Shown one piece after another: positions 30,186 to 30,537 of a stretch of DNA of 38,822 bases (position 1 is the first letter of the stretch; the number at the start of each line of letters is the position of its first letter). Where the stretch lies: sequence record PQ133623.1, one strand, 5' to 3'. The stretch comes from Klebsiella phage P7641. The notes below the pieces were generated by a model. The model was not told where the DNA came from and ran no database searches. It was given only the letters and a program-made list of their open reading frames with translations. The position numbers were made by a program, and so were the translations under genes.

Positions 30186-30216
30186 ACAAAAAGCCCCACA
30201 TTGTGGGGCTTTTTTA
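30186..30216. terminator. bidirectional intrinsic terminator
   Basis: AGCCCCA-CATT-TGGGGCT followed by T6 on the plus strand, with an A-run upstream that gives a T-run on the minus strand. Confidence 0.5.
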
Positions 30217-30230
30217 TGATTTCAATATTA

Positions 30231-30464
30231 TTAAATTAAACCAGCTTTTTTCCTTGCTTCTTCCAGATAATCTTTTTCTGGTTCCTCTTTTTTATGAGCA
30301 AGTGCAATCAGAAGATCAATTTGAGCACTTTGCTTTTCAGAGATTTCTTTAAGCATTGCGATCTGATCATTAGCTCTTACGCTTCCTCTGTTCAGGAAAT
30401 ACCAGATAACAAGATCAATAAGGCGAGCAAAAACAAATAATAATATCCAGCCAGTAGTAGTCAT
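30231..30464 (-). CDS. 77-aa membrane protein (cargo E; candidate superinfection exclusion)
   Basis: N-terminal TM helix (WILLFVFARLIDLVIWYF) then a charged helical tail. AT-rich. Inserted between the tail chaperone and tape-measure genes. Confidence 0.5.
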   Translation of the reverse strand: MTTTGWILLFVFARLIDLVIWYFLNRGSVRANDQIAMLKEISEKQSAQIDLLIALAHKKEEPEKDYLEEARKKAGLI

Positions 30465-30537
30465 TTAAAGCACTCCGTGTGTCAAAAAAAACAACATAAC
30501 ACCTGTTATGAGTGGCATCCACACGAATTATTACTGG

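Follow-up and report, generated by a model that had tools for sequence, protein, structure and literature searches.

We describe a small gene in the tail operon of Klebsiella phage P7641 (sequence record PQ133623.1), whose 38,822 nucleotides were analysed as a whole, are here called the window, and represent a complete temperate phage genome with its genes in vegetative order. The gene encodes a protein of 77 amino acids (aa) and lies in the gap between the G/T tail chaperone genes and the tape-measure gene, where an initial annotation of the same DNA had placed it and where its open reading frame (ORF) and the Pfam matches of its flanks confirm it. With its low GC content, its own ribosome-binding site (RBS) and its own terminator, the 367-bp stretch 30171-30537, which we refer to as the slot, is a self-contained moron cassette. 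The slot and its borders are made up as follows.

30846-31250, minus strand: tail assembly chaperone G (Phage_TAC_1, PF06222, E=1.3e-44)
30538-30843, minus strand: T-frame segment of the tail assembly chaperone, the left border of the slot (Phage_tail_T, PF06223, E=5e-17)
30465-30537, minus strand: upstream intergenic part of the cassette, holding only the RBS and weak promoter candidates (GC 38.4%)
30231-30464, minus strand: gene for a 77-aa YebO-family, HK97 gp15-like protein, predicted to be a single-pass membrane protein (ATG-started ORF, Pfam and PHROG matches)
30188-30214, minus strand: intrinsic terminator of the cassette (terminator scan and RNA fold)
26784-30170, minus strand: gene for a tape-measure protein of the HK97 type, 1128 aa (Phage_HK97_TLTM, PF06120, E=6e-97; PF20155; PF09718)

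The slot has a GC content of 35.4% as compared to 58.2% in T, 54.8% in G and 51.2% in the tape-measure gene, and it is the sole GC trough below 40% within the late structural operon, which bears out the earlier remark that the gene is richer in AT than the tail genes on either side. The 77-aa ORF is preceded by the RBS GGAG (30476-30473), 8 nt 5' of its ATG, ends with a stop codon at 30233-30231 and translates to MTTTGWILLFVFARLIDLVIWYFLNRGSVRANDQIAMLKEISEKQSAQIDLLIALAHKKEEPEKDYLEEARKKAGLI; the tape-measure gene follows with an RBS of its own (GAGG, 30181-30178) and its ATG at 30170. Between 29800 and 31300 the window is 98-99% identical to Klebsiella prophages, for instance ST101-KPC2phi6.3 (MK416017) and Klebsiella phage 1 LV-2017, and the GenBank label of the 77-aa gene in MK416017 is 'hypothetical protein (YebO)'.

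The T segment on the upstream border lies in the -1 frame relative to G. We note that the G/T pair (30843-30870, minus strand) is without a canonical slippery heptamer, the HK97 counterpart being GGGAAAAG. The 3' end of G reads ..GCT AAA GCA AAG TAA. Since the -1 (T) frame stays open for just four codons before the ATG of T, a G-T fusion would need slippage at A-AAG directly 5' of the stop codon.

On its downstream side the cassette closes with the terminator, whose hairpin pairs GCCCCAC (30209-30203) with GTGGGGC (30199-30193) across the loop AAT and continues into TTTTTGTTT. The A-run of the terminator starts 15 nt after the stop codon of the 77-aa ORF, the U-run occupies 30192-30184, and the terminator lies 13 nt 5' of the tape-measure start. 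The hairpin folds with -20.1 kcal/mol (z=-4.5), a stability that no sequence out of 200 shuffled ones reached; a strong hairpin had been claimed at 30192-30215, which is right to within a few bases. A scan of Rfam at a permissive threshold gave sub-gathering matches only, all of them seeded by this hairpin, and no RNA family.

It had also been stated that transcription of the tape-measure gene must cross this terminator, which is correct, yet expected, given that HK97 has the same arrangement and that a Q gene is present in the window. In the lambdoid paradigm, Q-modified RNA polymerase ignores intrinsic terminators, and the late operon of HK97 has several further annotated terminators besides the one after gene 15. 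Because the window encodes a lambda-type Q antiterminator, to which we assign its role by that paradigm, read-through of the terminator is explained.

The region upstream of the ATG offers two weak promoter candidates found by eye, namely an extended -10 element, TGtTATGTT (30501-30493), and AATAAT (30532-30527), the latter just past the T stop codon. Two promoter matches returned by a scan at 30469-30437 were rejected, as they lie across the start codon or beyond it and could not drive the ORF, and a perfect TTGACA at 30485-30480 was rejected for want of a usable -10 element before the ATG. In a second prophage, ST147-VIM1phi7.2 (L005, MK448232), the motif TGnTATGTT is retained despite substitutions nearby. 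In that same prophage (2050-4460) the tail operon is split by an element of the IS21 family of insertion sequences (IS), which stands after T and before the YebO-like gene, directly upstream of TGnTATGTT.

The 77-aa ORF is a real gene under purifying selection. Compared with a homologue of 75% identity (L009), pN is 0.15 and pS 0.75, giving an omega of ~0.04 that is approximate since the synonymous sites are saturated. The protein matches the Pfam family YebO (PF13974) over residues 13-70 with 60 bits (gathering cut-off 27; E=2.7e-16) and phrog_5031 with E=6.7e-38 over 3-76 of 75 profile positions, and a search of 5.8 billion proteins returned 76 homologue clusters, mostly named 'YebO family protein' and from Klebsiella, with further clusters from Raoultella, E. 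coli, Symbiopectobacterium and Serratia. The probability that the ORF is spurious is negligible. Two plus-strand ORFs that overlap the gene (30164-30352 and 30294-30440) were rejected, as they are unsupported and run antisense to a frame on which purifying selection is strong.

The YebO/gp15-like family is narrow, since an exhaustive HMMER search of 1.84 billion representatives gave only 36 matches at E<=1e-3, and this agrees with the statement that gp15 homologues are restricted to Enterobacteriaceae (PMC3594210). NCBIfam holds no match for the window protein, the PADLOC defence models match neither it nor HK97 gp15 nor the 173-aa alternative cargo introduced below, and a profile search of the PDB with the window protein found chance coiled-coil matches only (E>0.3).

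As a side observation, two poly-A tracts towards the 3' end of the gene (at ~30295-30270 in the window, where they read AAAAAA and AAAAA) vary in length from one database homologue to another, and these changes shift the frame and swap the tail YLEEARKKAGLI for ..RLSGRSKEKSWFNLIILKS (L013:4170-4200; P0029, P0030, P0035 and P0049). Such differences are either slippage-prone variation or sequencing error.

The 77-aa protein and its kinship with HK97 gp15

The N-terminal transmembrane (TM) helix and charged helical tail put forward in the initial annotation are borne out by hydropathy, charge counts and structure prediction alike. A hydrophobic stretch spans residues ~5-24 (Kyte-Doolittle 19-mer maximum 2.11, residues 6-24), and the remainder of the protein (residues 25-77) carries 10 K/R and 10 D/E. 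AlphaFold2, run on an alignment of 17 sequences, gives a single continuous helix from residue 3 to residue 73, with a mean pLDDT of 76 and values of 89-95 over the TM part. We infer a single-pass protein with a predicted location in the inner membrane. The positive-inside rule predicts an N-out/C-in topology in which the charged helix would face the cytoplasm, since the N-terminal flank MTTTG is uncharged and the C-terminal flank NRGSVRAN has a charge of +2. Within the TM helix lies an Arg14/Asp17 pair. Homologues with as little as 75% identity retain it, and it is conserved across the Klebsiella/Raoultella/Symbiopectobacterium clade; HK97 gp15 and HK022 gp20 are without it.

A likeness to HK97 gene 15 was first proposed from position, and it can now be strengthened to homology. 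HK97 gp15 (NP_037709, 62 aa) has PF13974 (35.4 bits) and phrog_5031 (E=5e-29) in common with the window protein, and BLASTP aligns the two over 51 aa at 49% identity and 80% positives (E=8e-18). Both proteins have a single N-terminal TM helix, the motif R-x-S-x-RAN-x-Q and the distal helix LKEIxxKQxAQIDLLIxxAH, and both genes are low in GC. The slot is also the same, as had been claimed: in the HK97 record gene 15, labelled 'moron product', lies between the frameshifted chaperone (T frame) and the tape-measure gene, and an annotated terminator comes after it, 13 nt short of the tape-measure start, as in the window. The HK97 tape measure gp16 is itself homologous to that of the window, with 52% identity over 1070 aa, a much more conserved first ~300 aa and nearly the same hydrophobic segments. 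Further homologues besides the one in HK97 occupy the same slot between T and the tape-measure gene.

For the comparison of the distal helix, the alignment was cut after the common R-x-S-x-R-x-N motif and the next 26 residues were compared. The window protein is identical to gp15 at 16/26 of these, to E. coli YebO at 8/26 and to HK022 gp20 at 7/26, and on this resemblance of the distal helix we assign it to the gp15 subtype. The likeness to gp15 is thus greatest in the very part in which gp15 parts from chromosomal YebO (PMC3594210). All things considered, the window protein is almost certainly a gp15 homologue in a moron cassette.

Differences from gp15 are nevertheless plain. The window protein has 77 aa as compared to 62 aa, its extra tail EEPEKDYLEEARKKAGLI is not in gp15, and Arg14/Asp17 of its TM helix correspond to W/N in gp15. 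The host is Klebsiella, and the distal tail module of the phage is other than the lambda M-L-K-I-J type.

A second branch of phage proteins, HK022 gp20 and its homologues of Serratia prophages (74 aa), is likewise classed as moron, belongs to the same Pfam family (47.7 bits) and the same PHROG (E=6.9e-41), and is 47% identical to the window protein. The gp20 family, too, occurs in phages whose tape measure is of the HK97 type; its slot differs, lying between the tail genes K and I in HK022 and in the Serratia prophages, and so does its distal helix (LESIDxKLSKIxDP). At the very C-terminus the kinship is reversed, as the last residues of the window protein, YLEEARKKAGL, are identical to the 11 C-terminal residues of gp20. 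Judging by these alignments, the window protein is a mosaic that joins a gp15-type helix to a gp20-type tail.

We observe that HK75 carries both YebO-like paralogues, one of the gp15 type and one of the gp20 type. In HK97 the K-I slot (L001, 3061-3159) contains a stretch of 32 aa that matches the N-terminus of HK022 gp20 exactly, an unannotated remnant with the annotated terminator after it; HK97 thus once had both paralogues, as HK75 still does.

The founding member of PF13974 is YebO of E. coli K-12 (b1825, 95 aa; 124.5 bits), which has the TM helix and the juxtamembrane motif WFFINRASxRxNxQ in common with the window protein. It differs in being chromosomal, beside mgrB and outside any prophage, and in a longer and unrelated C-terminus. 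The possibility that the 77-aa gene is an orthologue of chromosomal yebO was rejected, given that it lies in a phage tail operon, matches YebO poorly in the distal helix and has no YebO-type C-terminal region. The same pattern was described for gp15, which resembles YebO N-terminally and diverges at the C-terminus (PMC3594210).

Slot cargo and tape-measure alleles among relatives

We extracted the DNA from the T stop codon to the tape-measure ATG from 80 IMG/VR loci in which the T protein is at least 95% identical to that of the window. For one of the 80 loci, whose tape-measure start was not found, the assignment to one of the following rows is uncertain.

77-aa YebO-like gene (slot of 364-368 bp): 56/80 loci, one of them also with an IS element
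173-aa polytopic membrane protein: 19/80 loci, two of them with an IS insertion
146-aa lipoprotein: 3/80 loci
134-aa lipoprotein: 1/80 loci
94-aa secreted protein: 1/80 loci
empty slot: 0/80 loci

All of these cargos are low in GC (33-40%), and every alternative cargo has its own hairpin just 5' of the tape-measure RBS. The alternatives have no Pfam or PADLOC match and fall into PHROGs of unknown function. As relatives with a near-identical T have unrelated cargo in the slot, the 77-aa gene is accessory and not structural, which is typical of a moron.

Two further observations concern the make-up of the slot. Three of the IMG/VR loci (L017, L019 and L043) have slots of 1.4-1.7 kb with a transposase-sized insertion. 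A Symbiopectobacterium prophage contig (L009, 3601-4237) has a two-gene slot between T and the tape-measure gene, in which a 113-aa lipoprotein (lipobox LAGC; phrog_914, unknown function) precedes the YebO/gp15-like gene, giving what looks from its sequence to be a double envelope-protein moron.

The first ~120 codons of the tape-measure gene in these relatives (L015-L094) fall into two alleles, A and B, which are ~57% identical and have their first 44 residues in common. The segment AFAGAFATGHLISLADEW, in which allele A resembles the window and HK97, reads AAAAFATGKLVQIADQW in allele B. YebO cargo in an intact slot goes with allele A at 51 loci and with B at one, three being too short to call; other cargo goes with allele B at 23 of 24 loci, the remaining one being A-like. 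The single exception on the YebO side, L072, is a recombinant of YebO cargo with the B tape-measure allele.

That cargo type tracks the tape-measure allele is suggestive only, and it would fit a protein directed at the phage's own type of tape measure, since gp15 excludes HK97 itself. A functional coupling was not accepted on this basis, the two genes being adjacent and the IMG/VR loci not independent.

A proposed role in superinfection exclusion

For HK97, family, slot and function were all known already from work published in 2000-2012. HK97 gp15 is reportedly the superinfection-exclusion moron of Cumby et al. 2012, J Bacteriol 194:5012.

An addendum by the gp15 authors describes gp15 as an inner-membrane protein that is expressed from the prophage and that blocks genome injection of HK97 and HK75 without blocking receptors and independently of immunity (PMC3594210). 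HK97 entry is said to need LamB, FkpA and PtsG, and its tape measure is thought to form a channel in the inner membrane, according to Cumby et al. 2015 as cited in a preprint (bioRxiv 10.1101/2025.12.01.691526). The exact mechanism of gp15 is given as unknown (PMC3594210; PMC10883804). The earlier statement that HK97 gene 15 blocks DNA entry in a tape-measure-dependent way holds for the block itself; the published dependence was mapped to a swapped region of tail tube and tape measure and not strictly to the tape measure alone (PMC10883804).

On the strength of its homology to gp15, we consider it probable, with moderate confidence, that the window protein confers tape-measure-dependent superinfection exclusion, the tape-measure protein being its presumed specificity partner. 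In a lysogen, a weak promoter belonging to the 77-aa gene itself would drive its transcription, which would stop at the hairpin and leave the tape-measure gene silent. The protein would insert into the inner membrane and there prevent formation of the tape-measure-dependent DNA channel by incoming phages with an HK97- or A-type tape measure, so that such a phage would adsorb and its DNA would stay outside. In the lytic cycle, RNA polymerase modified by Q would cross the hairpin and the tail operon would be expressed normally. Expression of the gene from the prophage is, like the rest of this scheme, inferred.

Other prophage envelope proteins that block DNA entry after adsorption, namely SieA of P22, Ltp of Streptococcus TP-J34 and Sie2009 of Lactococcus Tuc2009, are comparable by mechanism only. 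SieA is polytopic and Ltp a lipoprotein, architectures unlike that of the window protein, and no sequence relationship was detected or to be expected. Escape from TP-J34 Ltp maps to the tape-measure protein (PMC10883804).

Several points weigh against exclusion as the role of the window protein. Family membership does not guarantee it, for HK97 is unaffected when E. coli YebO is over-expressed or deleted (PMC3594210). The identity to gp15 is only 49%, and the window protein ends in a 15-residue C-terminal tail, ..YLEEARKKAGLI, which gp15 is without and HK022 gp20 has. The predicted N-out/C-in topology leaves just ~4 residues in the periplasm, so that contact with an incoming tape measure would take place inside the membrane or below it, on the cytoplasmic side. 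The association of cargo with tape-measure allele is confounded by physical linkage, and the sampled prophages are not independent. A consensus sigma-70 scan found no promoter upstream of the ATG of the 77-aa ORF, and our literature search found no paper on the Klebsiella homologue. As to the promoter, the same consensus scan was just as empty in front of HK97 gene 15, for which expression from the prophage has been reported (PMC3594210), so the negative scan of the window decides nothing.

As one alternative, the protein might be a YebO-like lysogenic-conversion protein that alters the physiology of the host envelope, such as stress or cationic-antimicrobial tolerance, with no part in phage exclusion, as could be suggested by the indifference of HK97 to chromosomal YebO, a member of the same Pfam family (PMC3594210), by the C-terminal tail common to HK022 gp20, a protein of unknown function, and by a colistin-selected Enterobacter mutant whose sole mutation lies upstream of a YebO-like gene (PMC8772718). 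We hold this to be unlikely, if worth serious attention, given that the distal helix is like that of gp15 (16/26) and unlike that of YebO (8/26), that all phage-borne homologues whose context was examined lie in tail operons with an HK97-type tape measure, in the T/tape-measure or the K-I slot, and that the cargo tracks the tape-measure allele. Alternatively, the gene may act mainly in the lytic phase, co-transcribed in the late operon under Q, for instance by blocking the injection of sibling or progeny phages into infected cells or by modulating the membrane contacts of newly made tape-measure protein. It does lie on the same strand inside a Q-dependent late operon, so that late transcripts must include it, and no strong promoter of its own is detectable; yet a terminator directly 3' of the gene is sensible only if transcription often starts just upstream without antitermination, and the repressed HK97 prophage is reported to express gp15 (PMC3594210). 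A mainly lytic role, which would be compatible with exclusion at the prophage stage, accordingly seems to us decidedly improbable.

The initial annotation had itself named one reading on which its proposal could fail, that the gene is a conserved structural component of the tail. It might then be a tail-assembly gene, a third chaperone-like one for the tape measure. Nothing but the position between the chaperones and the tape-measure gene speaks for this. The slot holds unrelated cargo in relatives with T genes at least 95% identical, the YebO-like family stands between K and I in other phages, and the GC content of 35% departs from the more than 51% of the tail genes; with cargo exchanged, family members in other slots and a deviant GC content, this reading is effectively refuted and we give it next to no credence.

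A wider speculation joins these strands, in which the slot between T and the tape-measure gene would, in this Klebsiella phage lineage, be an exchangeable 'exclusion cassette' locus whose cargo is functionally matched to the tape-measure allele immediately downstream, YebO/gp15-type proteins going with the A allele and the 173-aa polytopic protein or the lipoproteins with the B allele. As a joint reading we think this doubtful. Were it true, the alternative cargos would be a set of tape-measure-specific injection blockers, the conserved Arg14/Asp17 pair of the YebO type would engage a hydrophobic segment of the incoming tape measure, and the mosaic of gp15-type helix and gp20-type tail would represent module shuffling between two exclusion slots.

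Other accessory regions and implications

The remainder of the window is arranged as follows, with the tail and head genes coming after the integrase region, on the minus strand.

1695-2978, minus strand: endolysin and holin
6179-6526, minus strand: Q-type late antiterminator (Phage_antitermQ, PF06530, E=1.5e-42)
8731-9684, minus strand: O-like replication protein
10091-10621, minus strand: CII-like protein
10927-11622, plus strand: CI-like repressor
16149-17141, plus strand: integrase

Three further regions stand out from this plan. Between the Q antiterminator and the lysis genes, on the opposite strand, lies a two-gene block of low GC (3797-6182, plus strand; 32-36%), and which looks like a further moron or defence cargo. 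One of its products is a nucleoid-associated protein of 391 aa (NA37/YejK-like; PF04245, E=1e-48), and the other, of 405 aa, matches neither Pfam nor PADLOC. A 290-aa ORF (15008-15880, plus strand) just ahead of the integrase occupies the part of the window lowest in GC (29%, with a trough minimum of 26% near 15036); Pfam gave no match for it and PADLOC a weak one, to Csx27 (E=2e-6). In the att-proximal accessory region, with the integrase on one side and the tail-fibre genes on the other, a 379-aa ORF (18308-19447, plus strand) has no PHROG or PADLOC match.

With the HK97 precedent taken as given, the points worth keeping from the window and its relatives are the gp15/gp20 mosaic, the intramembrane R/D pair, the five-way polymorphism of the slot cargo and its correlation with the tape-measure allele. 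In NCBI records of many Klebsiella genomes the gene is named only 'YebO family protein'. If it is gp15-like in function, many K. pneumoniae lysogens would be refractory to HK97-like siphophages at the step of DNA entry, which would bear on host-range and spot-test data for clinical Klebsiella and on the choice of therapeutic or transducing phages. The only characterised member of the family would then be extended beyond E. coli, and the C-terminal tail, the intramembrane R/D pair and the A- and B-type tape-measure partners would offer natural variants with which recognition of the tape measure may be dissected.

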